A DNA stretch of 64,000 nucleotides from NCBI GenBank assembly GCA_902577765.1, contig CACHAK010000001.1, forward strand, positions 263,040 through 327,039, read 5' to 3'. Source of the DNA: an uncultured Pelagibacteraceae bacterium. GTDB taxonomy: Bacteria; Pseudomonadota; Alphaproteobacteria; Pelagibacterales; AG-422-B15. Position 1 is the first letter of the stretch, and every line of letters starts with the position of its first letter. The notes under the pieces were generated by a model. It did no database searches. It was not told the origin of the DNA and saw nothing but the letters and a program-made list of their open reading frames with translations. Position numbers and translations under genes: made by a program. Positions 6,467 to 57,418 of the stretch are shown piece by piece.

Positions 6467-6660
6467 GAAAAAAAATAATAATTATTTTTAATTTATTTTT
6501 ATTTTTATTTAGTTTCAATGCCTGCTCATCAATAAAAAATTTTTCTTTTTATGAGTTTTTTATCAACCCGAATGCTGCAGAATTAATTTTAGATGATCAA
6601 GAAAATTCTCAGAAACCAGATTTAGAGAGCGTACCAGAAAAGGTTGAAATCGATGAGTAA
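6463..6660 (+). CDS. Small putative lipoprotein
   Basis: Basic N-terminus, hydrophobic stretch, lipobox FNAC; overlaps both neighbours. Confidence 0.55.
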   Translation: MRKKIIIIFNLFLFLFSFNACSSIKNFSFYEFFINPNAAELILDDQENSQKPDLESVPEKVEIDE

Positions 6661-7942
6661 AACTTATGGTGTCGGAATCGCAGGACTTGGAACAGTTGGA
6701 TCGGGATTTCTCAAACAATTAAAAAATTTTAAAACACCCTCACAAAAAACTGCAAATATCAATGTAATTAAAATTGCTGTTAAGAACTTAAGAAAAAAAA
6801 GAAGTTTATCAGTTAAGTCTCTACCGTTAACAACTGATACAATGTCATTAGCAACAAATGACAATGTAGATATTTTAATTGAGCTAATTGGTGGCTCAAA
6901 GGGAATAGCATATTACGTTGTTAAAAAAGCACTCCAAAATAAAAAGCATGTAATTACCGCTAATAAAGCTTTGCTCGCAGTACATGGCAATGAGTTATCT
7001 AAAATTGCTGAACAAAATAATGTTTGTCTCAATTATGAAGCAGCTATTGCTGGCGGTATACCAATTGTAAAAGCTGTAAGAGAAAATTTGCGACTTAATA
7101 AAATAAACAAAATTTATGGTATTTTGAATGGTACTTGTAACTACATTTTAACAAAGATGGAAAATAATGCGGGAGATTTTAAAAATGTATTAAATGATGC
7201 TCAAAAAAAAGGTTTTGCTGAGTTAAATCCAACATTTGATATTCAAGGTATTGATGCAGCTCATAAGATCACATTGTTATCAAGTATTGCTTTTGACATT
7301 CCTGTAAATTTTAAAGCTACTTTTATAGAAGGTATTACTAAGATTGATAAATATGATTTTGTTTTTGCAAAAGAATTAGGATATTCAATAAAATTATTAT
7401 CAGTTGCTTCTAAAAAATTAAGTAAGATCGAACAAAGAGTTCATCCTTGTTTTGTTAAACTAAAATCAGATATTGCAAAAGTGAGTAACGAGATCAATGC
7501 TGTTGTTGTAAATGACTCAGTAATTGGAAAAAATATTTTTGAAGGCCCTGGTGCTGGAGCTGGACCAACGGGAGCCTCTGTTATGTCAGACCTTATGGAC
7601 ATTATAAGAGGTACTTATAATTATCCATTGGGTGTATCAATGAAAAAGAAAAAGAAGCTAAAAATCCAGAAAATTGATGATTTGTCATTCCCATATTATT
7701 TGAGAATTACAGCCAAAGATAAGGCCGGGGTAATGGCAAAAATTTCTAAATCTCTATCAAAAAGAAAAATTTCGATTGAAAGTATAATTCAAAAGCCATC
7801 GAAAAGGTCAAATTTTGCTGAAATTATTTTGATAACTCACACAGTTAAAGAATCTTCGCTTTTATCATCTATTAAGCAGATAAAAAGATTACCAGAAGTA
7901 AGCTCATCTGTTAAATTTATCAGAATTGAAGATTCGTTATGA
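6653..7942 (+). CDS. hom: Homoserine dehydrogenase with C-terminal ACT domain
   Basis: GLGTVGSG, HVITANKA, EAAIAGGIP, GILNGTCNYIL, GPGAGAGPT. Confidence 0.95.
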   Translation: MSKTYGVGIAGLGTVGSGFLKQLKNFKTPSQKTANINVIKIAVKNLRKKRSLSVKSLPLTTDTMSLATNDNVDILIELIGGSKGIAYYVVKKALQNKKHVITANKALLAVHGNELSKIAEQNNVCLNYEAAIAGGIPIVKAVRENLRLNKINKIYGILNGTCNYILTKMENNAGDFKNVLNDAQKKGFAELNPTFDIQGIDAAHKITLLSSIAFDIPVNFKATFIEGITKIDKYDFVFAKELGYSIKLLSVASKKLSKIEQRVHPCFVKLKSDIAKVSNEINAVVVNDSVIGKNIFEGPGAGAGPTGASVMSDLMDIIRGTYNYPLGVSMKKKKKLKIQKIDDLSFPYYLRITAKDKAGVMAKISKSLSKRKISIESIIQKPSKRSNFAEIILITHTVKESSLLSSIKQIKRLPEVSSSVKFIRIEDSL

Positions 7943-10884: not shown

Positions 10885-11553
10885 ATGACCGAAATGTTTA
10901 AGCACTATAAACCTTTAAATAATAGTGACCGTATAGCTCTACTATTTACAAAAGCCCTCCGTCTTTTCGCTGATCTTTTCTTTAAAAAACGTTATGGGCA
11001 CAGAGCGGTTATATTAGAGACTGTAGCAGCTGTCCCTGGAATGGTCGCCGGTATGCTTAATCATTTAAAAAGCCTTAGAAATATGGAGCAAGATAGAGGC
11101 TGGATCAAAACACTTTTAGATGAAGCTGAGAACGAAAGAATGCACTTAATGACTTTTATTAATATTGCAAAGCCATCAGTTTTTGAGAGATTTTTAGTGA
11201 TGATAGTGCAAGGAATATTTTTTAATCTTTATTTTGTAATGTATTTAGTTTCACCTCGTACCTGCCATAGAATTGTGGGTTATTTTGAGGAGCAAGCAAT
11301 TATAAGTTATACAGAATATTTAGATGAAATTGAAAATGGAAATATTGAAAATGTTAAAGCACCTCAGATAGCAATTGATTATTGGGGTTTATCACAGTTT
11401 GCAAAATTAAAAGATGTTATCATTGCTGTTAGAAACGATGAGATGGGTCACCGTGATGTTAACCATGAATTTGTAACACTTATTGATCAAAAAGACCATA
11501 AAGAGACTTATACAGATTCAAGTGAAATACTCTCAAAAGATAATACTAAATAA
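10885..11553 (+). CDS. aox: Alternative oxidase (di-iron ubiquinol oxidase)
   Basis: [38 protein letters not shown]. Confidence 0.92.
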
Positions 11554-33599: not shown

Positions 33600-33647
33600 A
33601 GATGATAATTTTCATTATTTATTAGCAAATTGATTAGGGAGTCCAAA

Positions 33648-34991
33648 ATGAATCTATTGCTCAAAAAAACAGCACTATCTCTAACTGCTGTTATGACTTT
33701 TTTAATTTTCTCAATACCATCTTCAAATGCAGAAAGACTGTCTTCAATGGTAGAGCAAATATTATCTTCTCACGAAGACATTGTTAATTCCAAGAAAGAG
33801 GTTGAGGAAGCATCAAGAGATGTTACCGATGCACTTTTAGTTTATGCTCCTGACTTGTCAGTAAAATATGAGGCTGGTCAAAATGACAAATATAATGCCT
33901 CTTCAAATTCTCAAATAGATGGCTTTGACACTTTTGATTGGACTTGGAAACAGAAAATAATGGACTCAGGTGCTTCCATGGCAGATGTAAGAAATAAAAG
34001 AATAGCTTTAGAGAAAAAGGAACTTGAATTTATTTCTGCTCGTAATGATCTTTTAATTGAAGCTGCGGATGCTTATCTTGGATTAATTAAAGCATCAGAA
34101 AAATTGGAGGCATCAGTCGCAGCTGAAGAAAATACAAGACAAACAACTGGTCAGGAAGAAATCAGAGTTCAAGTTGGCTCTGGATTGGCATCGGATGTTT
34201 TAAAGGCAAAAAGACAATTAGCGAGTGCACAAAAAACAGTTATTACAGATGAAAAAAGTTTTAAATCTGCAATCTATACTTACGAAAAACTTTTTAATGT
34301 AGACGATGTTAATGTTAACAGTTTAACCAAACCTAGACTTGCAGCATCTACAATCTCGATGGTTCCAAAATCTATGGAGGCAACTGTTGTAATGGCATTA
34401 TCCGGAAATCGTGACTTACAAATCGCCAAAATTGATGTTGAGACCGCAAAAAATGATCTTGCTTCAGCTCTAGCTAATTTTGGCCCAACAGTTGATGCAG
34501 AAGCTAAATACTCAGATAAGAATGATGCCTCTCACACAGGAGGAAGTCATTATGAAGAGCAGATTAAAGTTACTGTGGAATTTCCAATTTCTGGTTTTTA
34601 TATGGAAATGCCAGGTTATTTAAACGATCGTTCTGCATTGGATAGAGCTATTAATGATTTAGCTCTGAAAGAACGTGATACAGTTAAAGCTGCAAAAGAT
34701 GCCTGGGTTGAGTATGCAAATGCAAGAACCATGCTTTCTTACAGTGAGAATGAGGCGACTATTGCTAAAGAACTTTTATCAATTGCTCAAAAAGAAAGAG
34801 CTGCTGATCAAACAGATGCTGCCGCAGTGCTAGCAGCTGAGGAAGCATTAGAAGGCGCTCTAAAAGATTTATCTGATGATAGCATGGCCCTACTAACAAC
34901 TGTGTATGAAATTTTAGATGTTATTAATTTGCTTGAGCCAGATATGGTTGAAGAAAGTGTAAGAGAAGGCACATTTAATACATCATCATAA
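33648..34991 (+). CDS. TolC-family outer membrane channel of a T1SS
   Basis: Signal peptide, duplicated OEP-type repeat (ADAYLGL...SDVLKA; DAWVEY...AAVLAAE); ATG 33648 after GGGAG; precedes substrate-ABC-MFP. Confidence 0.85.
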   Translation: MNLLLKKTALSLTAVMTFLIFSIPSSNAERLSSMVEQILSSHEDIVNSKKEVEEASRDVTDALLVYAPDLSVKYEAGQNDKYNASSNSQIDGFDTFDWTWKQKIMDSGASMADVRNKRIALEKKELEFISARNDLLIEAADAYLGLIKASEKLEASVAAEENTRQTTGQEEIRVQVGSGLASDVLKAKRQLASAQKTVITDEKSFKSAIYTYEKLFNVDDVNVNSLTKPRLAASTISMVPKSMEATVVMALSGNRDLQIAKIDVETAKNDLASALANFGPTVDAEAKYSDKNDASHTGGSHYEEQIKVTVEFPISGFYMEMPGYLNDRSALDRAINDLALKERDTVKAAKDAWVEYANARTMLSYSENEATIAKELLSIAQKERAADQTDAAAVLAAEEALEGALKDLSDDSMALLTTVYEILDVINLLEPDMVEESVREGTFNTSS

Positions 34992-35040
34992 CAACTTGAA
35001 AGGTAATATTTACGGTTATAATTTTAGAAAGGAATATTAG

Positions 35041-38000
35041 ATGCCAGTAACGCCAGCAGAAGCACAAGAGTTTTTTCAAGAGGTTGCCGCCGCAGGCTCT
35101 CCTGAGGAACAACAGGCATTAATACAAGATTATGCTGCCAATAATGACAATCCAGATGAGATGTTGGCAGCAGTCGTACAAGCCAATCCTGCTGCTGCTC
35201 AACAAATTGCAACCGTAACTGCACAGGCAATCCCAGAACAGGCAGCCGAAATTGCTGGCGCAATCGCTGCTGCAGCACCACAAACTGCTAATGCAACTGC
35301 CGCTGCAATGGCGAGTGCAGCACCTGATATAGCAGAAGACGTTGCTTCTGATGTTGTTCAAAATGCTCCAGCAGCTGCTGGCGCTGTCGCTGCCTCACTT
35401 ACTCAAATTAATCCAGAAGGTGCCGCTGAAATGGCTGCAGCTATTGCTGAAGTTGCTCCTGCAGCTGCGGGCGCTGTTGCAAGTGCTGTTGCACAAGCTG
35501 CACCTGAACATGCTGTAGATGCTGCTGCATCAATGGCCGCTGCTAACCCTGCTGCTGCAAGTGGAGCTGCAAGTGCTGTTGCTGCCGCTGATCCTGAAGC
35601 CGCTTCCCAAGTTGCAACTGCAATGGCTCAGGCCGCACCCGAAGCTGCCGCAGCTGTTGCTGCCGGAGTTGCATCTGGTGTTGCACAAGCTGCTATTGCA
35701 GAAGTTAATCAAGAAACCGCTCAAGAAAATGCTCAAGCTCAAGCAGATGCACAGTCCCAAGTAGCTGAAGTTGGTCAGGAAGGATTATCCGATATCCAAG
35801 GTGATTTACAAGAGACATTATTAGAAAACAATCAAGCAGGTCAAGAAGCTGCACTTGAAGCATCACAAGCTGCAACACAAGAAATTATTGCTGAAATGAT
35901 ACAAATGAATCCTGATGCTGCTGCTGAAATTATTGCCGGTACTGCTGCATCAAATCCAGAAGCCGCTGCTGAAATGGTTCAAGAAATGATGGCATCAAAT
36001 CCTGAGGGAGCTGTTGAATTATGTGCTGATATAGCTGAGGCAAACCCAGCCGCCGCTGCGCTAGCCACAGAAGCAATTATTGAAGCTGCTCCAGAGCAAG
36101 CAATTGAAGCAACCGCTGCCATGGCTGAAGTTGCACCTGCTGCTGCGGGAGCCGCTGCTGAAGTGATGGCAGAATTAGCGCCTGATCAAGCAGGTGATGC
36201 TGCAATTGCAATGCAAGAAGCTGCACCAGAAGCGGCTGCTGCAATTGCTGGTGGAGTTGCACAAGGTAATCCAGATGTTGCTGCAGATGTTGCATCAGAA
36301 ATGGCTGCTGCTGATCCTGAGGCCGCTGCCGATATTGCAACTGGAGTTGCTGTTGCTGCACAAGCAAATGCCGCTCAAGAAGTTGCCGCTGCTCAGGCTG
36401 AGGCACAGGCACAAATTGCTGAGGCAAGTGCAGACTTGCAGGCTGATTTAACATCTGACGATCCAAACGTAGTAGCTCAAGCTCAAGCGGCAATAGCTGA
36501 GGTACAAGCTGCTGCTCAAGAAACGATTGCTGAAGCGCAAGGTGCTGCAGCAGAAGTTGCACAAGAATTAGCTGGCGATATTGCTGGCGCAATGATGGAA
36601 GCCAACCCTGAAGCAATTGGAGACATCGCAGAACAAATCGCCGAGTCAGCTCCTGGAGCTGCAGAGGGAGTTATGGGAGCAATTGCAGAAGTTGCACCTG
36701 AACAAGCAGTAGATGCCGCTGCAACAATGGCTGATGCCAATCCTGCAACCGCGGGTGCTGCGGTTGGAGCAGTTAGTGAAGCTTTACCTGAATTAGCTAC
36801 TGAGGCTGCTGTCGCTATGGCTGAAGCTGCGCCAAGTGCTGCTGCAAATATTGCTGCAACTGTTGCTCAAGCCAATCCAGAAGCCGCTACAGAAATTGCA
36901 AGCGAAATGGCAGCTGTGGCTGCTGGAAATGAAAACTTTTCTCAAGATGAAGCATTAGCTATGCAAACTGCAATTGCAACACAAGTTGCAAGTGCGGCAC
37001 CTGAAGCTGCAGCAGAAGTTGCTGGAGCAATGGTCGAAGCTATGACGGCCGTTGACGGTAACGCAAGTGATGGTGCTCTCGCAGAAGCAGCTGCCGCAAT
37101 GACAGCAAACGTTGCATCTGCAGCAACTATTGCTGATCCAGAAGGCGCAGCTGAATTAGCTGGAACGATGATGGAGCAAATGGCCGAGATTCCTGGAATT
37201 GAACCTGAGGCCCTTGCTGAAACTGGTGCTGGAATGACTGCTAATATGGCATCTGCTGCTGTACAAGCGGATCCAGAAGGAGCTGCAGATTTAGCTGGAG
37301 CGATGATGGAAGTTATGGCTGACATTCCAAATGTACCAGAAGAATTTGATATGGCCGGGCAAATGGCTGATATGACAACTGCAATTGCTACACAGGCTAC
37401 AGCTGCTGCTCCCGACCAGGCTGCAGAATTAGCTGGAGCGATGATGGAGCAAATGGCTGAGATACCTGGCGCTCCTGCAGATTTTGACCCTGCAGAACAA
37501 ATGGCTGAAATGACAGCAAACATTGCAACTGCTGTTGCAGCTGCAGACCCTGAAGCCGCAGGTGAAATTGCAGGTCAGATGATGGAACAAATGGCTGAGA
37601 TACCGGGAGTATCACCTGAAGATATGGCGGACTTTAACGCTGACATGGCAGCACAAGTTGCGCAAGTTGCACCTGAAACCGCAGGAGAAGTTTTGGGAGC
37701 AATGGCTGCCGCTGATCCAGGAGCTGCTGCTGAACTAGCAACTGCAATGGCAGAAGCAAACCCTGCTGCGGCTGGTGAAGCGATGGCGGGACTTGCTGAA
37801 GCTGCACCTGAACTTGTCGCAGATGTAGCCGGAGCTGTTGCTGAAGCTGCACCGGAATTATCGGGAGCACTAGCTGCTGGAGTTGCATCGGGTAATCCAG
37901 AAATTGCTGCTGAAGCTGCTCTTGCATTAGCGGAAGCTAACCCTGATGCTGCTGCACAAATTGCTGCAAGCACTGCTGCTGCAAATCCAGAATTTGCTGC

Positions 38001-41000
38001 TGAAGTAACAGCTGCGATGGCTGACGCCAACCCAGACGCTGCGGCTGACATGGCTGCTGCTGTAGCCCAATTTGCACCTGATGCTGCTGCATCTGTTGCA
38101 TCTGAACTTATTTCTAATGACCCTGAAGCTGCGGGTGAACTTGCAGCTGCAATGGCCGAAGCAAATCCAGCTGCTGCCGGAGATATTGCTGGTGCATTAA
38201 TGGAGTCAGCACCCGAACAAGCTGTAGCTGCTGCTGCAGCAATGGCCGAGGCTAGTCCTGCTGCCGCTGCATCTGCAGCACAAGGCATGGCGGCTGTTGT
38301 AGCAGACGCTGGTTTCTTTGATGGTGGAAGCGCTGACATAGCAACTCAAGCCGCTGCTGCAATGGCAGAAGCTGCACCAGAAGTTGCTGCTTCAGTTGCT
38401 GCGGGTATTGCTAGTGGTAATCCTGAAATGGCCGCTGATGTTGCTGTTGCAATGGCAGAAGCTGCACCTGATTCCGCATCCGCAATCGCAGGTGGAATGG
38501 CAAGAAGCGCACCTGATGCTGTTGGTGATGTTATCGGAGCAATGGCCGATGCCAATCCTGAGGCTTTAAATGATATTGCAACAGGAGTTGCACAAATTGC
38601 ACCAGCTGCCGCTGGCGATGCAATGGCTGCTGTTGTAGACGCTAACCCTGAAGCTGCAGTTGCTGCTGCAACTGCAATGGCTGCCGCTAATCCTGCAGCC
38701 GCACAAGATATTACTGCCGCAATAATAGAAGTCGACCCTGGCGCTGCTGCGGATACTGCCGCTGCATTAGCAGAAGCTGTACCTCAAGCTGCTGGGATGA
38801 TTGCAGCGGGCGTTGCAGAAGCTGCACCTGAAGCTGCTGCTGATGTGGCTGGCTCACTTGCTGAAGCCAATCCAGCTGCTGCTGCGCTAATCGCTACTTC
38901 TGTTGCACAGGCTGCACCAGAACTTGCTGGAGATATTGCTGCTGATATGGCCGAGGTAAATCCTCAAGCTATGGCTGGAGCTGTTGCAAATATTGCAGCA
39001 ACCGTTGCTGCTTCAAATCCAGACTTGGCTGCGGATATTGCGGGAGATATGGCCGCTATTAACCCTAATGCCGCTGGAGCAATTGCAAATGTTGTTTCGG
39101 CTCAAGCTCCAGAAGCTGCAGCTGAAGCTGCCGCTGCTTTGATACAAGCTAACCCAGATGCTGCTGGAGCAATCGCCGCTGGGGTTGCTGCTCAAGCACC
39201 AGAGGCTGCTGCTGATGCTGCTTCTGCTCTGGTTGAGGCAAATCCAGATGCTGCCGCCGCTATTGTAGGTGGGATGGCAAATGCAAATCCAGACGCAGTT
39301 GCTGATGTTGCTGGAGCTATGATGGAAGCTGCACCGGAAGCTGCCGCTGCTATGGCTGGTGCTGTAGCGCAAGCTGCTCCTGAAATGGCGGGAGATATGG
39401 CCGCTGCAATTGCTGAGAGTAATCCTGAACTAGCCGTTGAGGCTGCTGCTGCTATGGCTGAAGCCAATCCTGCTGCTGCACAAATGGCTGCAGAAGGAAT
39501 GATGGAAGCTGCACCTGAGCTTGCTGCTGATGCAGCAAATGCAATGGCTGCTGCTGCACCTGAAGCTGCTGCTGATATTGCAGGTGGAATGGCAATGGCT
39601 AACCCTGATGCTGCCGCTGATATTGCTGGTGCGATGGTTGCAGCTAATCCTGATATTGCAGGTGATATTGCAACTGGTGTTGCTATGGCTGCTCCGGTTG
39701 CCATGGAAAATGTTGCAAATACTTTAATAGAATCAAACCCTGAAGCGACAGCGACGATGGCTGCGGTCCTTGCAGAAACTGCACCTGGTGCTGCTGACAA
39801 TATGATGAGTTCTGTTGCTGAATTAAATCCTGAAGCAGCATTGGCTGTTGCTGGTGCGATGGCTGAAGCAAATCCAATGGCTGCTGAGGGCACTGCGGGT
39901 GCAATCGCTGATGCATTGCCAGATATCGCTGCTGATGCAGCTGGTGCTATGGCTGCTGCTAATCCAGACGTTGCTGGAGATATTGCTGCCGGTATGGCTG
40001 GATCAAATCCAGAAATTGCTGGAGATATCGCTGGAGCAATGATGGATGCCGCTCCTGAGGCTGCTCAAGGAATTGCTCAGGGTATTGCTGCTGCTGCACC
40101 TGATCAAGCCGCTGAGGTTGCAGGGGCGATGGCTGAGGCAAATCCAGAATTTGCTGGTGATATTGCTGGAGGTATGGCTGCGGGAGATCCAGGACAAGCT
40201 GCTGATATAGCAACTGCAATGGCAGCTGCAAATCCTGAAGCTGCTGCTGATATTGCAGGAGGTGTTGCAGAGTTTGCACCGAGTGCTGCTGGAGATGTTG
40301 CGGGGGCGATGGTTGAAGCAAACCCTGAAGCTGCTACAGATATGGCTGCTGCGATGGCTGAAGCGAACCCAATTGCCGCAGGAGCTGCAATGGGAGCAAT
40401 GGCTGAAGCTGCTCCAGAAATTGCTGCAGATGCTGCAAGCGCAATGGTTGCTGCAAATCCAGATGCTGCTGGTTTAGCTGCGCAGAGTTTAGCAGATGCA
40501 GCTCCTGAATTGGCTGCTGATGCTGCAACTGCAATGATGGAAGCTGCGCCAGATGCTGCTGGTGCAATTGCCGGAGGAGTTGCTAGAGGTGACGCTGATA
40601 TTGCTGCTCAAGTAGCAACAGATATGGTTAATGCCAATCCAGAATTAATGGGAGATATTGCAGGAGGTGTTGCGCAAATGGCTCCTGGCGCTGCCGGTGA
40701 TGTGGCCGGAGCGATGGTTGATGCAAATCCAGATGGCGCTGCTGATATGGCTGCCGCTGTAGCTGAAAATGTTCCTGGTGTTGCCGGTGCTGTAGCTGGA
40801 GCTATAGCAGAAGCGGATCCAGCTCTTGCTGCTGAAGCTGCTGGTGCGATGATGGAAGCTAATCCCGCTGCTGCCTCTGCGGCTGCTGCAGGTATGGCCA
40901 ATGCAGCTCCTGAAGTTGCAGGTGATGTTGCGGGCGCCATGATGGAAGTTGCAATGGACCCTGAATTTGCAACAGACTTTGCAGAAAATGCAGCAACTGC

Positions 41001-48128: not shown

Positions 48129-49070
48129 ATGAAAATGTTATTTAAAATAGTTTTGATTTTATATTGGGTAACTCTGCCAGTATTTGCTCAGGTCATATTT
48201 GAGAACCAGCAAAGTGGCACTCCAACTGTATTTAAAGTAAAACCAACTGACATGAAATTATGTGAAGATTTTGATTTAACTACTGGCGAGTGTTCAGGCG
48301 ATAATGTCTTTACTTTTTTAAAAACAATGACAGCAGACAATGGAAGATGCGACATTGCTGGAGTTACCGAAAACTCAATTGCTTGTAATTACGGACCGAC
48401 TAGCAATATTCCACTAAACGTAACCTATAGTTATTCAAGAATAACTCTTGATAGGACCATGTGGTTAAAGGGGACTGTGAATAATGTTACAAAACAGTTT
48501 ACCTCTTCAGATAGTTGTCACACGAACTCTGCTAATACTCAAGCAGATGGATCTATTGCGTCAGAGGGATCTTTAACTGGATCTCCAACTACTCAGGCAA
48601 TTAAATTTACAAATGGGCCTGGTAACGAGGATTTTTTAGGGAATGGAAGCAAGTCCTCAGCAAATACAATAGATACCTATGGAAACACTTGTTATAACGA
48701 TAGCTCAAATCAAGGCTGTGCTTGGGGCAGTGTAACTACATTAGATACTTATGGTTCCACTGTTTTTGATGGAACAAACCCTTATCCAGCATCTGATTAT
48801 AGCTTTACTGCTAATTATACTACACCCCCCGGCGGTGTTTGGCAAAGTGGTCTTTCAACAAATGACGACACGTTGGTCATAATCTATAAGTTAACTACTC
48901 CTTTTACGAGAACAAATTCAGATATTGCGCCACTTATAACAATGTCATTTGATGTAACGGATGCTTTAGATGCACAATTTATATATGCTAATGAAGCTGG
49001 TAGTGATCCAATAGAGGCTTGCTCAATTTATATTGGTAATCCAGGTGTAAGTATTACGATATCTGAATAA
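48129..49070 (+). CDS. Secreted Thr/Ser/Asn-rich hypothetical protein with 8 Cys
   Basis: Signal peptide ending VFA; beta-rich composition; 5 nt after the barrel gene. Confidence 0.8.
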   Translation: MKMLFKIVLILYWVTLPVFAQVIFENQQSGTPTVFKVKPTDMKLCEDFDLTTGECSGDNVFTFLKTMTADNGRCDIAGVTENSIACNYGPTSNIPLNVTYSYSRITLDRTMWLKGTVNNVTKQFTSSDSCHTNSANTQADGSIASEGSLTGSPTTQAIKFTNGPGNEDFLGNGSKSSANTIDTYGNTCYNDSSNQGCAWGSVTTLDTYGSTVFDGTNPYPASDYSFTANYTTPPGGVWQSGLSTNDDTLVIIYKLTTPFTRTNSDIAPLITMSFDVTDALDAQFIYANEAGSDPIEACSIYIGNPGVSITISE

Positions 49071-49099
49071 GAGGTTGTTTAAAAATCAAAAAAATTATT

Positions 49100-49594
49100 A
49101 TGAAAATTCTTATATGTGGACTTCCCGGATCAGGCAAAACTTGGTTAGCAGAGAGACTTGTTCAAAGTATAGATAATTGTGCATGGTATAATGCAGATAT
49201 TGTAAGAACTGCGTCAAACGATTGGGATTTTTCAAATGAGGGTAGGTCTAGGCAGGCAATGAGAATGAAAACCTTTGCTGACTTCGAAAAAAATAATGGA
49301 AGATATGTAATATGTGATTTTGTGGCTCCGACAAAAGCCGCAAGAGAGTCTTTTGGCGCAGATTACTTAATCTGGCTTGATACAATTAAGGAAGGAAGAG
49401 TTGTAGACAATAAAAAAAAAGAATTAGAGAACTCCAAGGATCTTCCATTTGAAGTTGAAACGCTTGAGAATTCTCAAGCATTTAAAGATACAACTAATAT
49501 GTTTGAAGAGCCTAAAAATGCAAATAAGGTTATAAATAGTTTCATGAATGATCAGGAAATAGCTGCTTTGGCAAAAGAAATTACCAATGTTTGA
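49100..49594 (+). CDS. Adenylylsulfate-kinase-like P-loop protein
   Basis: GLPGSGKT, YNADIVR, DFSNEGRSRQ, VICDFVAPT, MFEEP. Confidence 0.7.
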   Translation: MKILICGLPGSGKTWLAERLVQSIDNCAWYNADIVRTASNDWDFSNEGRSRQAMRMKTFADFEKNNGRYVICDFVAPTKAARESFGADYLIWLDTIKEGRVVDNKKKELENSKDLPFEVETLENSQAFKDTTNMFEEPKNANKVINSFMNDQEIAALAKEITNV

Positions 49595-49982
49595 TTGGAA
49601 AAAGCCAACATCTCAGATGCTTGGCCGTTGGCAACCTTGGCATAAAGGCCATACGGAGCTATTCAAAAAAGCTTTAAATTTGTCAGGTCAAGTATGTATT
49701 ATGTTTAGAGATGTTTCTGGAGTTGACGCTGGAGTTGATGGTCAGTCAGATAACCCATTTGAGTTTGAAGAAGTAAAAAAACGTATAATTAACAGTCTTG
49801 AATTAGAGGGATTTAAAAATGAAAGAGAATTTGTTGTAATTAAGGTACCAAATATAACTAATATTTCATATGGCAGAGGAGTAGGTTACACATTTACAGA
49901 GCACGACCTCGGAGAAGAAATCCACAAAATTTCAGCTACAAATATTCGTAAAGAAATGAGAGATAAGGATGAACTAGATTAA
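49587..49982 (+). CDS. Small HxxH nucleotidyltransferase (cytidylyltransferase-like)
   Basis: GRWQPWHKGH, NPF, ISATNIR; 8-nt overlap with the kinase. Confidence 0.8.
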   Translation: MFDWKKPTSQMLGRWQPWHKGHTELFKKALNLSGQVCIMFRDVSGVDAGVDGQSDNPFEFEEVKKRIINSLELEGFKNEREFVVIKVPNITNISYGRGVGYTFTEHDLGEEIHKISATNIRKEMRDKDELD

Positions 49983-50329
49983 AATATTGTTGCTCCAAAT
50001 ATTTTTATTTCTCCATCTTCTACACCTAAAACTAACCTTCCTAAATAATCACCATCTGAAATAGTACTTTTTTGCTTAAACAGTGCAGTAACATTTCCAT
50101 CTCTTCTAATACATCCGAGAAATTCATTTTCTTGCTTTAAATTTGTTATAACCTCGTTGTTTGCCCATTGTTTTGCAAGTTCAATTTCATTCGCTCCAAA
50201 AAGCATTCTTGCTGAAAAATCTTTTGTAAACCCAAAGTAATCTTGGGAATTTGAGCAATTAATCAAATTATTCCAGAGGGGAGTGGCAATTTCTAAAATT
50301 TCCTTATCAGATTTTTGAAGAAGGTCCAT
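49979..50329 (-). CDS. Hypothetical protein directly downstream of aprA
   Basis: ATG immediately follows the aprA TAA; 116 aa. Confidence 0.7.
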   Translation of the reverse strand: MDLLQKSDKEILEIATPLWNNLINCSNSQDYFGFTKDFSARMLFGANEIELAKQWANNEVITNLKQENEFLGCIRRDGNVTALFKQKSTISDGDYLGRLVLGVEDGEIKIFGATIF

Positions 50330-52165
50330 TTAGTCGACAAGATTATGCATTGGAGCCTTATTCATAGTAAATTCACCTGTATCCCTGTCTCTTTGTGAAA
50401 CAGTCAAACAGTGCCAATTTGCATCATCAATTTTCATGTGATCACCACGATAGTAATACCCAGGCCATCGTGTTTCTTCCCTGAACAATGTATGACTCGT
50501 CACGCACTGAGAGGTGGTAACTCTATGCTTTAATTCCCAAGCTCTCATAAGCTGGTGGTAATCTTCTGCGGCTACATGCTCTAAATCTTCTTCAAGCATC
50601 TTTAGAAGATTAGTCCCAATTTTTAGCAAGTTATCATTTGTCATGTAAGAAACTCCAACACCTCCTACATACTCATCCATTATCTTTTGTAAGCGTTGAA
50701 GTCCTTGAATTGGAAGAATATAACTTGGAGATACTGTGCCAGCAGTAATTTCATTTCTTCCAACTTTATAATTTTCAAGAGGCTTATAAATAACTTCTTT
50801 TAAATCTTCATATTGTTTGTCAGTAACCTTAATTTCTTCACTTTGCATATCATTTACATATTTAACAGCAGCTTTTGCAGCAAGACGTCCCTCAGTAAAT
50901 GATCCTGAAGAAAATTTATGTGCACTTCCACCAACAGTATCTCCTGCTCCAAATAATCCATTGACACTTGTCATCCTGTTGTATCCCCAGAAATAATCGC
51001 TTGGTGAAATATCCTCTGGACCACTAACCCAGGCTCCGGAACAAGTAGCGTGTGAGCCCATTACATACGGTTCGGATGTAGTGAGTTCAGGATTAGTATA
51101 TTTTGGGTCAATGTTCTGAGATGCCCACACAACAGCTTGACCAACTGTCATGCCAAGAAAGTTCTCCCAGCCAACTGTTTCCATGTGAGGATCTTGAAAC
51201 GCTTCTTTGGTAACCATGTGAATAGGCCCACGTCCAGCTTTTACCTCTTCAATAAATGCATGGTTTCTTAAACAAGTTGGTACAGGAACATGATCAATAT
51301 ATTCGCCTACAAGTTTTTTAGTTTCTTCGTACCATTTTTTTTCATAATTTTCCCCGTTACCGTTTTCTGTGTAAGTTTTAAGATGTAAAAAATAAGCACC
51401 CACTGGTCCGTAACCATCTTTAAACCTTGTCAGAACTATTCTATTTTCCATTTGTGTCATTTTGGCTCCAGCCATAATAGGAAGAGCGTATGCTGAGCCA
51501 TTACTCCATGGCGCATACCAAGTCCTTCCCATTCCTTCACCAACAGCTCTTGGTTTGAAAATATGAGATGCTCCTCCTGCAGCCACAATAACTGCTTTGG
51601 CTTTAAAAACATGGTAATTCCCTGTTCGCATATTGAAACCAACAGCACCACCCACTCGGTCAGATTTACCTTCATCCATCAGAAGATGAGTGATCATTAT
51701 TCTATTGTAAATTTTATTAGCTGATTTTTTTGCAGCCTCAGCTACAATAGGTTTATAACTTTCACCGTGGATCATTATCTGCCATTTGCCCTCCCTTTGG
51801 TACCTGCCTGTTTCTTTGTCTCGCATGATTGGCAATCCCCATTCATCGAACATATGAACAGTGGAATCGACGTGTCTTGCGATATCGTATGTGAGATCCT
51901 CTCTAACTAAACCCATTAGGTCATTTCTGGCATATCGGACATGATCTTCTGGTTGATTTTCATCCCATTGCATTCCCATGTAGCAATTTATAGCGTACAG
52001 TCCTTGTGCTACTGCGCCGCTTCGATCAATATTTGCTTTTTCAACACATACTATTTTAAGATCTCTGCCCCAATGTCTTGCTTCAAAGGTAGCGCCTGTT
52101 CCAGCCATTCCACCGCCGACAATGAGAATGTCACAATCCTCATGAATTGTTTTAATTGAAGCCAT
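50330..52165 (-). CDS. aprA: Adenylylsulfate reductase alpha subunit
   Basis: GGGMAG, RSGAVAQGLYAINCY, WQIMIHGESYK, GHKF-like AHKFSSGSF, EETRWPGYY. Confidence 0.97.
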   Translation of the reverse strand: MASIKTIHEDCDILIVGGGMAGTGATFEARHWGRDLKIVCVEKANIDRSGAVAQGLYAINCYMGMQWDENQPEDHVRYARNDLMGLVREDLTYDIARHVDSTVHMFDEWGLPIMRDKETGRYQREGKWQIMIHGESYKPIVAEAAKKSANKIYNRIMITHLLMDEGKSDRVGGAVGFNMRTGNYHVFKAKAVIVAAGGASHIFKPRAVGEGMGRTWYAPWSNGSAYALPIMAGAKMTQMENRIVLTRFKDGYGPVGAYFLHLKTYTENGNGENYEKKWYEETKKLVGEYIDHVPVPTCLRNHAFIEEVKAGRGPIHMVTKEAFQDPHMETVGWENFLGMTVGQAVVWASQNIDPKYTNPELTTSEPYVMGSHATCSGAWVSGPEDISPSDYFWGYNRMTSVNGLFGAGDTVGGSAHKFSSGSFTEGRLAAKAAVKYVNDMQSEEIKVTDKQYEDLKEVIYKPLENYKVGRNEITAGTVSPSYILPIQGLQRLQKIMDEYVGGVGVSYMTNDNLLKIGTNLLKMLEEDLEHVAAEDYHQLMRAWELKHRVTTSQCVTSHTLFREETRWPGYYYRGDHMKIDDANWHCLTVSQRDRDTGEFTMNKAPMHNLVD

Positions 52166-52169
52166 CTTT

Positions 52170-52634
52170 TTAGTTGATCCCTTTTTGATTATCTTTCTTT
52201 AGACTTGGAAGACCTGTTTCAATATTAAGTCCATTAGGTTCTGAGTAAAGTAACTGTGAATCTATTTCCTCATTTGTTGGAGGCGTTTCATCAGCAAGAT
52301 TTGGAATATGTTTACCCCAAGGTTTAGTTGTAATAGGCGATACAAAATTTTTTTCGTGACCATTTCGGAATTTTATTCTCCAAGATATTGTGCCTTTTTC
52401 TTCCTCTCGTAAAACCCTTACCTTGTGGTGCATCGGCGCAAAGTCAGCGTAGCCTCTTGCATCTATAGCATTTTGAGGACAGGCTTTTACACATGAATAG
52501 CATTCCCAGCACATGTTAGGCTCTATATTTACCGCGCGTCTTGTTTCTTTATCAATATGCATAATGTCTGATGGACATATATCTACGCAATGACCACAAC
52601 CATCGCATCTTGTCATGTATACAAATGTTGACAT
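52170..52634 (-). CDS. aprB: Adenylylsulfate reductase beta subunit
   Basis: CDGCGHCVDICP and CWECYSCVKACP; WRIKFRNG. Confidence 0.97.
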   Translation of the reverse strand: MSTFVYMTRCDGCGHCVDICPSDIMHIDKETRRAVNIEPNMCWECYSCVKACPQNAIDARGYADFAPMHHKVRVLREEEKGTISWRIKFRNGHEKNFVSPITTKPWGKHIPNLADETPPTNEEIDSQLLYSEPNGLNIETGLPSLKKDNQKGIN

Positions 52635-52673
52635 ATATTTTCCTCTTCTCGTTTCCTAGTAAATCAGTTTTTG

Positions 52674-53462
52674 TTAATAATGCCTAGGCGATTCTCGTTT
52701 AATTCCAAGTCCAAATTGCTTTGGTGCATCAGCTGGGGCAGGTAAGTCATCCCTATACCCGTCAGCCTCAGATAAATTCTTTTGAATTGCTGCACCTGGT
52801 TTGTAAAACATGTGAGCAAATTTCGACCAATATACACCACCAAACAATAAAATATTAGATAGGCCAAAGAGAACTAAAAACAAGATATCTAGTATTGGAA
52901 CCCCTGACGACTGAGTAAACGACCAAGCTAATCCAGAGGTTGCTGCAGCTAAAAGCGATAATACAAAAAGATCTGCTCTTATTATTCTATTCCACGGATT
53001 TGCCTCAGCAGAGACATCAACTCTTAAGAAAAACCAAAACCAATAACCTCCTAGACATGTCATTATAGCCCCAACATGCCATAACAATGATAGTTGATAG
53101 GGAGCGGGTGAATTAGTATATCCAAATATTAAGATAACAGAAGTAATCCAAAATAATATCGAACCGTACATACCTAAAAGGTGAGCAACTCTTCTTTGCC
53201 CTCTACCTAATTCTGAAGTTGTTAGAATATCGTTAGCAATTGTCTTGCTGATAATTTTTGCCTTTTGAGCGCCACTTAATTCATTTGTTGCAGAAGCTTT
53301 TGCTCTTTTAAAATTAATGAAAAAATATTTTGCATTCTTCTTAAGCACCATATCCACTAAAGTACCTATTGCAACCATCAGTATCATTACAACTACAAAG
53401 CCTTGTAACGCAATGGCGGGCACAAAAGTAATAAGTTCTTCGAAAGGATTTATATAAATCAT
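52674..53462 (-). CDS. aprM: APS reductase membrane anchor
   Basis: NPF, KYFF, RRVAHLLGMYG, GGYWFWFFLRVDV, WSKFAHMFYKPGAA, FGLGIKRE; upstream of aprBA. Confidence 0.9.
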   Translation of the reverse strand: MIYINPFEELITFVPAIALQGFVVVMILMVAIGTLVDMVLKKNAKYFFINFKRAKASATNELSGAQKAKIISKTIANDILTTSELGRGQRRVAHLLGMYGSILFWITSVILIFGYTNSPAPYQLSLLWHVGAIMTCLGGYWFWFFLRVDVSAEANPWNRIIRADLFVLSLLAAATSGLAWSFTQSSGVPILDILFLVLFGLSNILLFGGVYWSKFAHMFYKPGAAIQKNLSEADGYRDDLPAPADAPKQFGLGIKRESPRHY

Positions 53463-53515
53463 AAGTATCAATTCACTATAACAGAATCTATAAATAATAA
53501 CTATTATTTATACTT

Positions 53516-54451
53516 TCAAGGCAGAGGTTTAGTTTCAAATCTATTATATAATCGTCTCAAATTTGAAACTTTTTGTATGTCTTCTCTTAGATTTTTCGTG
53601 CCAGAGTCAATTGTTTCTGAATTGAATTCGATAATACAACTGGTAAAACTTTCACGATTTTTTAAACGGGAATAGTAGTCTCTTAAATTGTCTAATTTTT
53701 CAGTGAATAGCTCAACCAAATTAACTTCATCAAGTCTGTGTAATAATGTCATCCAGGTTATGTCTGCAATACTAAACTTATCCCCATCAATCCAGATCTT
53801 GTTCTCTAAATGACTATCTAACGAAGTTAAATGTGATTTAAGATTCTCAAATGCTTTTATAGCAACTCTTTGATGTGGAGAATTTTTATTAAAGACTGAG
53901 TAGCCTAATAGTCGATATAAAGTAAAATTAAGCGCTCTAAACTTTGAAGGATGCTTTATAAAATAATTAAAAAATTTAAAGAAACTAATTTTTCTAAGCA
54001 TTGCAACAAACAATGGTTGAGTAAGTAAGGATACGCAATTACCGGCGTAATCTTTTACCCCACTAACTGGGTCATCTCCAACTAACGAACCTTTTTTATT
54101 CCAATAATCAACTACTTCACTCTCCCCAAGTTTATTTGGAAAAGTTTCCATTAAATATCTTATTTGTTCGTGAGACTCATAAATAGGCTGATTGTTATGT
54201 AATAGAACTGGCACAGTTGCTTTTGGATTAATTCTAAGGAAATCTTTTGATAAGTTTTCACAATCTTTTGTCTCAATAATGTGTACATGAACCGGCAGGT
54301 AATCAATTTTATATTCCTCAAGACATATTCTTACTTTGCGAGAGCAAAGTGAGAAGTTGTTATGATAAAGCACCCATTCAGAATTTGAGTCTGATACTGT
54401 ATATTTTTGTTTACCCGTAAGATCTTTATTTTTAGGATTCTTTTTCTTCAT
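53516..54451 (-). CDS. Glutathione S-transferase family protein
   Basis: SLCSRKVRICLEE, INPKATVPVL, YES, FSIADI. Confidence 0.88.
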   Translation of the reverse strand: MKKKNPKNKDLTGKQKYTVSDSNSEWVLYHNNFSLCSRKVRICLEEYKIDYLPVHVHIIETKDCENLSKDFLRINPKATVPVLLHNNQPIYESHEQIRYLMETFPNKLGESEVVDYWNKKGSLVGDDPVSGVKDYAGNCVSLLTQPLFVAMLRKISFFKFFNYFIKHPSKFRALNFTLYRLLGYSVFNKNSPHQRVAIKAFENLKSHLTSLDSHLENKIWIDGDKFSIADITWMTLLHRLDEVNLVELFTEKLDNLRDYYSRLKNRESFTSCIIEFNSETIDSGTKNLREDIQKVSNLRRLYNRFETKPLP

Positions 54452-54803
54452 CCCATACTTTGTTTAGTAATTGACTGGCTGAAACTGCTGTAGGGAAACC
54501 ACTATAGTGAGCAACATGCAATATCATTTCTTCAATTTTTTCTTTCGTTATTCCTAAATTTTTAGCCCCTCTTAAATGAGATTTTAATTCATTCTCTCTA
54601 TTAAGTGCTACCAAAACCGTGAGCGTAATCATACTTCTTTCTTGAAGCGATAACTGCTCAGTTCGTGACCAGATTGTTCCATACAACATATCAATTATTT
54701 GCTTTAGCAAATCTTTAGAGACAGGAGTTTCATCATTCTTAAGTAAATCCATCTTCTTAAGGATTTCTAATCCTTTTTTTCTATCTTGATCATCTAATGG
54801 CAT
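54432..54803 (-). CDS. Carboxymuconolactone decarboxylase family protein
   Basis: YGTIWSR...LSLQERSMITL...HLRGAKNLG...HVAHYSGFP. Confidence 0.88.
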   Translation of the reverse strand: MPLDDQDRKKGLEILKKMDLLKNDETPVSKDLLKQIIDMLYGTIWSRTEQLSLQERSMITLTVLVALNRENELKSHLRGAKNLGITKEKIEEMILHVAHYSGFPTAVSASQLLNKVWDEEKES

Positions 54804-54833
54804 TTTTATATTTTACTCCTTAATAACAGTGTT

Positions 54834-56445
54834 TCAATTAAATTCAATTTTCTCTCTAATATTAAATAATACATTATTAATAATAGTTTCAAGACTATCG
54901 CTTTTATCAAAGTTAAATAAATCAAAAATATATTTATCAGGTCTTAAGATAACTCCAGAACAACCAAACTTTTTACAGTAAATTTGTAAATCTTTATGAG
55001 TTTCTTCACACGCAATGTACCCCTCATAGTTTGAATGGTTATAATTGTGAGTTACATTAATGATCTTAAAGTTATGTTTTTTTAAAAGTTCAAGGTTATC
55101 CTCTGAAATATTTTTATTACCTTCAAAATTATTTAAAATAATCCCAAAATTCTTTTCGAGCACATAATCTGTGCTCATAATTCTGCCATCATGAAGACGA
55201 ACATTTATCTCATTGAAGTAATATCTCTCAATTGAAACATTTTTAATTTTTGGCATTTTATGAACACCGGGTCCTAAACGGTTGCCATTTAAAACAGGAA
55301 ATATATTTTCTTTACCTCTTAAATAACTTTGTGTCCTTAGCAACGCATTCCTAATAAATGCTTTAAATTTACTTTTGGCATTAATGATTCCTCCCATTTT
55401 AATTGCCCCTCTAGTAATTCGAGCGACGTGCGGCCTTCTTTCAGATTGGTAGGTATCTAATATTTTAGGTGAGTAAAGTCCATTTAGTACTCCATTAATT
55501 TTCCACAATATATTTTCAGCATCTCTACATCCAGAATTCATTCCTTGACCCATAAAAGGAGGCATTTGATGTGCTGCGTCACCGAGTAGAAAGATATTTT
55601 CATTTTGCCATTTAACAGCATCGGCCGCGTGAAATGAGTAAACTGCTGTTCTGCTAAATTCAACTTCATTATCTCCGATCCATTGGTCTATGTATTTCCT
55701 AAAAACTTCTTCCTTTTGAATTTCATCAACAGTATCACCCGGCATAAAGGCTATTTCAAATCTAAAGCAATCATCAACCCCTTGAATAATTGTTGTTGGT
55801 CGTGACGGATTGCAATATTGAATCGCATCTATATCTGTGAAACAGTCAAATTTACTTTTCGTATACCCGTCCACCACCATCCAGGTCTCATCAGCATCTA
55901 AACTTTTAAGTTTAACATTGTTGAGTTTTCGAATTGTACTATTTGCTCCATCGCACGCCAAAAGATACTTACTGCTTGTTTTAAACTCTTCCCCGGTTTC
56001 AATATTCTTGTATGAACAATTCACAACGCCATCTGATTGATCAACGCTTAGAATTTCATTGCCTGTTTTAATCGTATTAGTCTGATATTTTTTTTGCATT
56101 TTCTCTATGAGCTTCATCAAATTGAGGTTGGTGAATGAACAGTATTGAATGTTGATAATTATATGTATCAAAACCATCCATTGTAATTTTTAAAATTGAT
56201 CTTTTCTTAGCATCTTTATTATCAACACCTCTAATTTTTCTCGTCTTCACTTTAGTTAGAAAGTTACAATGAGCCATTGCCCTTTGGCATTCAGCATCCC
56301 ATGTAATTGCTCTCGGTAAGGGGAAGGTTTCTTTTTCTTTATCTAAGATTAAAGCTTTAATGCCATAATAACCTAGCAAGTTTGCGCAAGTTTCACCTAC
56401 TGGTCCATACCCGGCTACAATGACATCATATTCAGTATCACTCAC
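54834..56445 (-). pseudogene. MhpA/PcpB-like FAD-dependent aromatic monooxygenase, split by a frameshift
   Basis: GYGPVG and PRAI in ORF 56077..56445; ACDGANS and GDAAHQMPPFMGQGMNSG in ORF 54834..56177; removing one A from the A8 run (56088-56095) gives one 536-aa frame. Confidence 0.85.
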
Positions 56446-56450
56446 GCGAC

Positions 56451-57344
56451 TTAGTATGCAGGCGTATCTTCTGGCTCTTCAATAACTTTATTGCTAATGA
56501 AGCCCAGTTTTTCAATTTCAATTTTAATTTCATCACCTGCTTTAAGCCAATTTCTTGTCATCACTGCAGATCCAGCCGGTGTACCAGTCGGAATCAAGTC
56601 TCCAGGTTCTAGTGTAAAAGCAGTTGATAAGTACTCTACTAATGTAAAACAGTCAAAAATTAAATCACTCGTCGAAGCAGACTGTCTTAATTCACCGTTT
56701 ACATATGTTTCAAGCTTTAGGTCATGCGGATCACCAATTTCATCACTGGTCACAATATAGGGACCAAAAGGACAGTGGGTATCCCATGACTTACCCATAG
56801 TCATTGTCATAGGAGGACCACGCATCTGCCAATCTCTGATTGTAACGTCGTTAACGACAGTATAACCATAAATAACTCCAGCTGCTTTATCATACGGTAC
56901 GTGACGACATTTTTTTCCAATAATGAAACCAAGTTCGCCTTCATAATCTAAAAATTCTGAAGCACGTGGACGATGAATTTCATCGTATGGACCGTTAACA
57001 GAGCTATTTTGCTTGTTAAATATATTTGGATATTTTTCTTGAGCTTTACCTATTGTTTTTGCAGCTGTCTGCGCAACTTCATCTTGATGTTCTTTATAGT
57101 TTAATCCAACAGCAAGAATTTTACTTGGTTTTGCAATAGGAGCTTCTAAATGTACTTTGCTTATATCAATTTTATTTTCACTTTTTTCAATAAGGTTTTT
57201 TGCATTAGCTAGACCTTGATCCCCAAGAGCGATAAAATCGATCATGTTGTTAGGTAATGAACTATTTGAGAAATCAATTATATGTTCTCCATTTATCGCG
57301 CCAATGGATGTAGTGCCATTAAATGTAAAGGTAACTAATTTCAT
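56451..57344 (-). CDS. Fumarylacetoacetate hydrolase family protein
   Basis: ILAVGLNY, DYEGEL, YTVVNDVTIRDWQ, GKSWDT, TGTPAG. Confidence 0.93.
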   Translation of the reverse strand: MKLVTFTFNGTTSIGAINGEHIIDFSNSSLPNNMIDFIALGDQGLANAKNLIEKSENKIDISKVHLEAPIAKPSKILAVGLNYKEHQDEVAQTAAKTIGKAQEKYPNIFNKQNSSVNGPYDEIHRPRASEFLDYEGELGFIIGKKCRHVPYDKAAGVIYGYTVVNDVTIRDWQMRGPPMTMTMGKSWDTHCPFGPYIVTSDEIGDPHDLKLETYVNGELRQSASTSDLIFDCFTLVEYLSTAFTLEPGDLIPTGTPAGSAVMTRNWLKAGDEIKIEIEKLGFISNKVIEEPEDTPAY

Positions 57345-57418
57345 AAAACCAAATCAATAAATATCTAAAAGCTAGGTTTGTAACAAGTTTAAATAATGTA
57401 TATTATTTTCTTATATTT

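Follow-up and report, generated by a model that had tools for sequence, protein, structure and literature searches.

Does the adenosine 5'-phosphosulfate (APS) reductase of a SAR11-type marine bacterium depend for its sulfite and its transcript on the aromatic-catabolism genes that lie directly ahead of it? The question is raised by a locus in the 64,000 nucleotides (nt) of DNA analyzed here, referred to as the window (G000:C1:263040–327039), which belong to an uncultured Pelagibacteraceae genome (G000) of 1.27 Mb in 19 contigs, with 33% G+C and 90.5% completeness. On the minus strand of the window, eight genes follow one another in the order FAH (56451–57344), monooxygenase (54834–56445), CMD (carboxymuconolactone-decarboxylase family, 54432–54803), GST (53516–54451), aprM (52674–53462), aprB (52170–52634), aprA (50330–52165) and hyp116 (49979–50329), with gaps of 5, 30, −20, 53, 39, 4 and 0 nt by the coordinates of the open reading frames (ORFs). 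A preliminary description of the window, made from the letters alone, had read these genes as one operon, in which aprMBA formed the tail of an aromatic pathway and oxidized sulfite released by arylsulfonate desulfonation. If true, this would have tied the APS reductase of an abundant marine heterotroph to aromatic sulfonate breakdown.

The comparisons presented here leave that proposal unsupported: the linkage is limited to one genus and a second one, g7, the aromatic block occurs without apr genes, the spacer before aprM carries a promoter-like element, no desulfonating oxygenase was reported among the scanned ORFs, and the neighboring sulfatase would give sulfate. We consider it likely that two independent modules lie head to tail in this SAR11 genus. 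The first would be a small phenolic or aromatic catabolic block, with a monooxygenase that is frameshifted in the window's genome. The second would be the SAR11-wide aprM-aprB-aprA-hyp116 unit, accompanied in this family by two genes for a nicotinamide mononucleotide (NMN) adenylyltransferase-like (NMNAT-like) and an APS-kinase-like protein. Most transcription of this second module would start at a promoter of its own, within the 53 nt that separate GST from aprM. Judging from what is known of the family, AprBA would oxidize sulfite plus adenosine monophosphate to APS, with AprM relaying the electrons to the quinone pool. The sulfite would be supplied by Xsc cleavage of C2-sulfonates encoded elsewhere in the genome, not by the neighboring genes, and any read-through from GST into aprM would be incidental.

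Conservation of the linkage between apr and aromatic genes

Loci were compared in a wide sample, consisting of the best 80 aprM loci of a species-representative collection, and in same-genus and sister-family sets that overlap it and are not independent of it. All named relatives matched with the aprM alignment were SAR11 (Pelagibacteraceae single-cell or Pelagibacter genomes). The window's own family comprised 60 genomes, with genera labeled g1 (the window's genus), g5, g6 and g7; the genomes are related and are not independent samples, and the mutual exclusivity of apr and cysNC described below is given as a pattern, not as a test.

The window's genus consists of two subclades, with AprA 98–99% or about 90% identical. 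The full order from FAH through monooxygenase, CMD, GST, aprM, aprB and aprA to hyp116 was found in 17 of 20 same-genus loci, the other three ending at contig ends. These loci equally retain all flanking genes, from the sulfatase out to a Vut1-family gene at 60952–61554; hence the order within the genus reflects general synteny. In the sister family, aprM-aprB-aprA-hyp116 alone was retained, in 18/18 loci from genomes that are about 99% complete, with pabB, pabA, pabC and HIT upstream and TauE and a YeiH-family gene downstream. Among the 70 of the best 80 aprM loci with at least 1.2 kb 5' of aprM, the gene directly upstream was HIT in 43, the NMNAT-like gene in 12, GST in 10 (all from one genus), a divergent APS-kinase-like gene in two and a divergent LysE in one, while two had no match to the query proteins. 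The spacer 5' of aprM measured at least 56 nt in every locus of the wide sample. On the other side of the unit, hyp116 lay directly 3' of aprA in 73 of the 74 SAR11 loci with room there.

Across the window's family, aprA was present in 39/60 genomes and the monooxygenase (at least 48% identity) in 48/60. LysE and aprM are divergently oriented in genus g5, separated by a 133-nt spacer that must contain the aprM promoter, and the aromatic block is on other contigs. There, a TetR gene belonging to the block directly precedes FAH and an SDR gene is present as well (L075 7139–8581); the window's version of the block lacks both. The GST-CMD pair of the g5 block is on the opposite strand. Genus g6 has the aromatic block and aprA in none of five genomes. 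In genus g7, a gene for a DmdB-like 3-(methylthio)propionyl-CoA ligase stands directly 5' of aprM and separates it from the aromatic genes (L073 5085–6707; L072 8316–9935); its NF005426 score of 767 bits is slightly under the cut-off of 822. By the standard of the preliminary description itself, a lack of conserved linkage counts against its proposal. Such a lack is largely what was observed: the linkage is confined to one genus and, with an intervening gene, to g7. Literature searches on aprM in SAR11, aromatic genes in SAR11 and cysDN/PAPS (3'-phosphoadenosine 5'-phosphosulfate) in SAR11, with supplements excluded, returned nothing on this locus.

Exchange of the apr cassette for cysD-cysNC

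Within the window's genus, the apr genes are replaced as a block. The exchangeable segment, delimited by blastn breakpoints at 49220–53923, takes in the 3' third of GST (from about 53923), aprMBA, hyp116, the NMNAT-like gene (49587–49982, plus strand) and most of the APS-kinase-like gene (49100–49594, plus strand). Four same-genus genomes (G024, G008, G009 and G002) keep FAH to GST and, where the window has its apr cassette, carry cysD together with a bifunctional cysNC. G024 is 99% complete; its cys-type locus also bears a YeiH-family gene and DUF2061 (L069 11520–17280; another cys-type locus is L084 2350–8320), and it gave no sulfatase match, the sulfatase being retained in the other three. 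Nucleotide homology between the window and the cys-type genomes ends within GST at 53923–53925 (blastn). In G002 it resumes at 49219–49093, in a decayed 5' remnant of the APS-kinase-like gene that has lost its start codon, has a broken P-loop and runs into stop codons. This remnant indicates that the cys cassette replaced the apr cassette in that lineage.

The CysD-CysNC of the sister strains resembles the apr cassette in that it occupies the same locus and also handles APS. The two were not found together: aprA was detected in 0/8 cysNC-bearing genomes of the 60 searched in the window's family, and a search of the window's genome did not find cysD-cysNC. The NIR_SIR sulfite reductase domain was not found in any of five genomes tested, so that CysD-CysNC would make APS/PAPS rather than serve assimilation. 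Together with the synteny patterns, the exchange indicates that the aromatic and apr modules have been gained, lost and moved independently, and that the neighborhood is an ordinary one and not a new pathway.

One alternative is a sulfur-ester island, in which the sulfatase-containing phenolic block and the adjacent APS/PAPS cassette cooperate, for example in aryl sulfate turnover or sulfation, and in which adjacency has been selected although the genes do not form a single operon. Such cooperation might account for two sulfur-nucleotide cassettes sharing one slot beside the block in one genus and for their mutual exclusivity. It fits less well with genus g5, where the apr cassette and the block are on separate contigs, with g6, where about 70 kb of one contig (G068:C2) separate cysNC from the block, and with G024, which keeps the block without a sulfatase match (L069). 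The slot also adjoins a variable region (type I secretion system, giant protein) with frequent exchange, in which neighbors are 40–74% identical while AprA is 98–99% identical, and the genomes that share the slot are related. We therefore regard this alternative as improbable.

The variable region itself spans window positions 33630–49070 and contains a TolC-like gene, a gene for a 3058-amino-acid (aa) giant protein (35041–44217), an ABC exporter, HlyD, an inverse-autotransporter beta-domain protein and a 314-aa ORF. HlyD, the beta-domain protein and the 314-aa ORF share only 40–80% identity among strains whose AprA is 98–99% identical to that of the window; this low identity indicates that a hypervariable region adjoins the apr cassette. 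In many relatives, the contig ends about 5 kb past aprA.

Transcription across the GST-aprM junction

The 53-nt spacer between GST and aprM (53463–53515, minus strand; 44 nt if TTG at 53471 is the aprM start) contains a 10+4+10 A/T palindrome at 53512–53489 and an extended −10-like element, TGTTATAGT, at 53483–53475, which sits 12 nt 5' of the aprM ATG at 53462. At equal distance from aprM, TGATATAAT or TGGTATAAT was found in the 90% subclade and in genus g7, despite the different upstream gene. Both subclades of the window's genus, and g7 as well, thus have TGnTATA[AG]T 12–13 nt ahead of the aprM ATG. Genome-wide, the pattern has 163 occurrences on both strands, so that any given stretch of 25 nt would contain it by chance with a probability of 0.0016. 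In an alignment of 12 unique close relatives, 43/53 positions of the spacer were invariant, compared with 116/183 of the GST coding sequence and 170/240 of the aprM coding sequence, and the spacer is thus conserved more strongly than the coding sequence on either side. From these patterns we infer a promoter close to aprM that would give a very short leader. A single operon would be expected to have no internal promoter before aprM; a promoter-like element is present at this place in three lineages.

A sigma-70 scan of 49000–58000 gave 25 matches against 34.4 in shuffles, is uninformative in A+T-rich DNA and did not list the aprM-proximal element. By-eye inspection of the aprM spacer in Pelagibacter-type loci gave no recognizable common motif. 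A terminator scan of the minus strand over the same interval, 49000–58000, found no terminator-like site. The statement in the preliminary description that there is no obvious terminator accordingly holds, yet the GST-aprM spacer bears the conserved promoter-like element. The A/U hairpin of the spacer was considered as a terminator and rejected, as the stability of its RNA fold was no better than that of shuffles (z −0.57).

RNA evidence came from four metatranscriptome runs of four studies, with contigs at least 90% identical to the region; the runs were found via this stretch. Contig X1 (587 nt, 92% identical, 53263–53849) spans the GST-aprM junction. Contigs X2 (57286–57582) and X8 (57187–57606), from two of the runs, span the spacer between the divergently oriented FAH and sulfatase genes. 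As contigs also cross this divergent spacer, the junction-spanning contig X1 does not prove a single transcript and may owe its span to DNA carry-over or to assembly. The contigs over the FAH/sulfatase spacer mean either that DNA was carried over into the libraries or that antisense transcripts overlap there. The depth of the RNA contigs, far higher for aprA, aprB and aprM than for GST to FAH, was not used as evidence, since contig depth cannot rank genes. In lineage I, the aprBA genes have been described as "always preceded and co-transcribed" with aprM, in the part of that work drawn on here (PMC2211403).

Several observations weigh against two independent modules. The eight genes share one strand, their gaps are short, and the scan of that strand detected no terminator-like site; all three features are expected of an operon. 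Despite about 10% divergence in AprA, the linkage holds throughout the apr-bearing part of the genus, and it extends loosely to g7. Contig X1 crosses the junction. The promoter motif was picked after the sequences had been viewed and is a post hoc choice. Finally, the presence of a second sulfur-nucleotide cassette, cysDNC, in the same slot could hint at a link between the neighborhood and sulfur metabolism.

Some of these points would be explained if transcripts begun at the FAH promoter ran on through all eight genes, alongside those initiated at aprM, without any functional coupling, such that the operon would be a formal one only. The missing terminator-like site, the spacer hairpin that is no more stable than shuffles and the contig across the GST-aprM junction are all consistent with this, and nothing was found that speaks directly against it. 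We regard such read-through as quite possible, although somewhat short of probable. It is compatible with two independent modules, to which it merely adds a minor transcript.

Content and likely chemistry of the aromatic block

Pfam scans covered window ORFs of at least 100 aa, and NCBIfam equivalog cut-offs were used where given. The block has members on both strands: a sulfatase, a VOC-fold protein and a DUF-like ORF on one, and FAH, monooxygenase, CMD and GST on the other. FAH (297 aa), the first gene of the block on its strand, matched PF01557 with 231 bits (E 1.2e-68), and its HpaG-like and other NCBIfam matches were all under cut-off. The monooxygenase is an MhpA-like group-A flavin adenine dinucleotide-dependent enzyme. 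CMD (123 aa) matched PF02627 (E 1.3e-18), and the GST-fold gene (311 aa) gave both GST_N and GST_C Pfam matches. On the plus strand, divergent from FAH, lies a sulfatase with a twin-arginine translocation (TAT) signal (57419–59122; PF00884, E 1.7e-43; TIGR01409), followed by a VOC ("glyoxalase/dioxygenase") superfamily gene (59126–59818; PF00903, E 3.9e-12) that may encode a ring-cleaving enzyme. The sulfatase is syntenic with FAH-monooxygenase in genera g1, g5 and g6, and the VOC gene also travels with the block.

The monooxygenase gene is interrupted in the window's genome. Its 1612 nt are split over two frames, 56077–56445 and 54834–56177, both of which matched PF01494 (NF004829, 81 and 289 bits). 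Alignment to relatives placed a +1 frameshift in an A8 homopolymer at 56088–56095 (minus strand). All seven aligned relatives have A7 at this position and an intact monooxygenase of 1611 nt and 536 aa, and RNA-library contigs of relatives in two runs (X2 and X7) have one letter fewer at 56088. The frameshift could be a sequencing error or a strain-specific pseudogene.

Lower pathways of gentisate and homogentisate degradation combine a flavin hydroxylase, a ring-cleaving dioxygenase, a GST-type isomerase and an FAH-family hydrolase. The block is similar in having a flavin hydroxylase, a VOC-fold protein, a GST-fold protein with a weakly MaiA-like N-terminus and an FAH-family protein. It differs in that all block proteins score under equivalog cut-offs, in that the putative dioxygenase is of VOC type and not of cupin type, and in the addition of a CMD-family gene and a sulfatase. 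On protein family matches, the block resembles a route by which some phenolic compound would be hydroxylated, cleaved at the ring, isomerized and hydrolyzed, and its substrate may possibly be a sulfate ester.

This content bears directly on the proposal that FAH to hyp116 form one functional operon, in which the monooxygenase desulfonates an aromatic sulfonate and AprMBA, made from the same mRNA, oxidizes the sulfite. Gene direction, short gaps, the absence of a predicted terminator-like site, the order conserved in 17/20 same-genus loci and the RNA-library contig across the GST-aprM junction are all as one operon would have them. The chemistry is not: an MhpA-type group-A flavin hydroxylase is no known desulfonating type, and Pfam reported no desulfonating oxygenase family (Rieske, SsuD/luciferase-like or TauD-type) in the scanned window ORFs, in which the MhpA-like protein was the sole oxygenase. 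The monooxygenase is moreover frameshifted in the very genome for which the role was proposed, and the sulfatase beside FAH points to sulfate esters, from which it would yield sulfate, not sulfite. Nor does the genomic context fit, with the linkage absent in g5, g6 and the sister family and with a cassette swap that drops apr and keeps the aromatic genes, while the spanning contig does not discriminate, given the contigs across the FAH/sulfatase promoter region. Taken together, we judge a functional single operon to be very improbable and continue with two independent modules.

Identity of the APS reductase and source of its sulfite

AprA (TIGR02061, 991.2 bits; cut-off 641.75) and AprB (TIGR02060, 193.1 bits; cut-off 135.65; PF12139, E 1e-30) were clearly identified, and both AprB matches together indicate the two ferredoxin-type clusters and the C-terminal tail characteristic of APS reductase. 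The 262-aa product of aprM, counted from the ATG at 53462, is the presumed lineage-I membrane anchor of the enzyme. It showed only weak similarity to QmoC in NCBIfam (NF038018, E 2e-6), confined to the C-terminal membrane part. The gene was found directly 5' of aprB in all related loci, and M1, P6 and F7 were invariant in the protein alignment. With AprA, AprB, an aprM 39 nt before aprB and qmo unseen in the scanned window ORFs, the enzyme is assigned by its genes to the lineage-I (AprM-type) APS reductases.

The places, identities and gaps of the eight minus-strand genes were thus as first described, apart from the monooxygenase, which is not a single ORF. The preliminary description had also passed over three neighbors, the APS-kinase-like and NMNAT-like genes, both convergent with the apr genes, and the divergent TAT-signal sulfatase. 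Its statement that dsr, sox, qmo and sat do not occur in the window was borne out for the scanned ORFs of at least 100 aa, in which Pfam found none of these families; the qmo search did not extend beyond the window.

In the gene order aprM-aprB-aprA, the presumed sulfite oxidation and AprM as membrane link, the locus is like that of "Candidatus Pelagibacter ubique" and other lineage-I sulfur oxidizers, as far as these are described in the part of Meyer and Kuever (2008, PMC2211403) drawn on here. Pelagibacter-type loci and the window (in its scanned ORFs) have the lack of qmo in common, and the window's AprA is 83–85% identical to that of the Pelagibacter-type genomes sampled. The neighbors differ: Pelagibacter-type loci have HIT/pabABC upstream and TauE and a YeiH-family gene downstream, and the window has GST upstream and the NMNAT-like and APS-kinase-like genes downstream.

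A candidate source of sulfite lies close by. The gene xsc, encoding sulfoacetaldehyde acetyltransferase, a true sulfite-releasing enzyme, was found at G000:C1:334595–336322 (963 bits; cut-off 676), 7.6 kb past the window end and 19 kb from aprA. The genome also has two TauE genes, and it gave no match to PF04295, which served as a proxy for SuyB. Lineage membership and the presence of xsc together suggest that AprBA works in the sulfite-oxidizing direction. The sections of PMC12636525 used here describe aprAB as part of the SAR11 core genome; the genes are subject to very strong purifying selection and "likely remove sulfite" from organosulfur degradation, alongside xsc and suyAB. A further source, likewise used in part, places the adjacency of aprA and aprB under sulfite oxidation and gives assimilatory sulfate reduction as absent from 135 Pelagibacter genomes (bioRxiv 10.64898/2026.04.03.716430). 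Apr as a sulfite sink in SAR11 is therefore a sound idea and already known; this half of the earlier proposal, a sink for organosulfur breakdown, fits the genome through xsc, and its other half, arylsulfonates as the source, is unsupported.

Elsewhere in the window, an alternative oxidase is encoded at 10885–11553 (PF01786, 289 bits) in this small genome.

Small partners of Apr and APS turnover

The unit ends with hyp116, a 116-aa protein without Pfam or NCBIfam match. Its AlphaFold2 model (pLDDT 92.6) gave Foldseek matches to NTF2/SnoaL/ketosteroid-isomerase-like proteins at a TM of about 0.5, and none of its 4864 relatives in the protein collection is named. In a sample of 301 Alphaproteobacteria, a homologue was present in three genomes outside the order, and in two of these, both larger alphaproteobacterial genomes, it again lay 3' of aprA (L171 1498–1845; L172 1501–1851). 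Hence lineage-I apr loci appear to have a fourth gene that has so far gone unnamed, namely hyp116, an NTF2-like partner of aprA.

The two remaining genes of the apr cassette are convergent with the apr module, and the stop of the NMNAT-like gene overlaps that of hyp116 by 4 nt. The NMNAT-like protein (131 aa) is a putative nucleotidyltransferase, with GRWQPWHKGH and ISATxIR invariant (keeping the HxGH and ISxTxxR motifs) and weak PDB profile matches to NMN adenylyltransferases (E 1.4e-3); its AlphaFold2 model was poor (pLDDT 66). The APS-kinase-like P-loop protein (164 aa) matched PF01583 (31.4 bits; cut-off 21.1), and its top PDB profile matches were APS kinases (2yvu, E 5.6e-10), over the N-terminal half only. 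Against TIGR00455, it scored 25.8 bits, far from the cut-off of 138.7 for a full CysC, and the protein is best described from these matches as CysC-like rather than as an established CysC. Both genes occur near aprMBA in three arrangements: convergent downstream, co-directional directly upstream and divergent upstream (L095–L103, about 6550–6950; L104 and L107, about 5970–6870). In Pelagibacter-type loci, a HIT gene takes their place.

Indirect sulfite oxidation by sat-aprMBA occurs in phototrophic and chemotrophic sulfur bacteria. The window's genome shares AprBA and AprM with this type and differs in ATP sulfurylase: Sat (PF01747) was not found in it, at 90.5% completeness. More broadly, among genomes of at least 90% completeness, Sat was present in only 5/121 from the order and in 0/12 from the window's family. 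AprA occurred in all 18 sampled sister-genus genomes, despite the near-absence of Sat in the order. With canonical Sat nearly absent, APS turnover is not explained by the canonical enzymes, and the recurrent small neighbors of aprMBA are candidates for it. They might supply the missing step, either by a non-canonical adenylyl transfer from APS to pyrophosphate or phosphate or by conversion of APS to PAPS. In this genus, the apr cassette and cysD-cysNC would then be alternatives, the one fed by sulfite and the other by sulfate, that supply or clear an APS/PAPS pool; we offer this only tentatively and hold it to be rather unlikely. A limited literature search, supplements excluded, turned up no paper on APS turnover by small apr neighbors.

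The link between apr and aromatic genes at this locus is positional only and is not to be carried forward as a pathway. What is worth keeping for the biology of SAR11 is the fixed fourth, NTF2-like gene of aprMBA and its recurrent small nucleotide-handling neighbors. In addition, one genus that carries either the apr cassette or cysD-cysNC at one locus offers a clean natural contrast for asking what Apr does.

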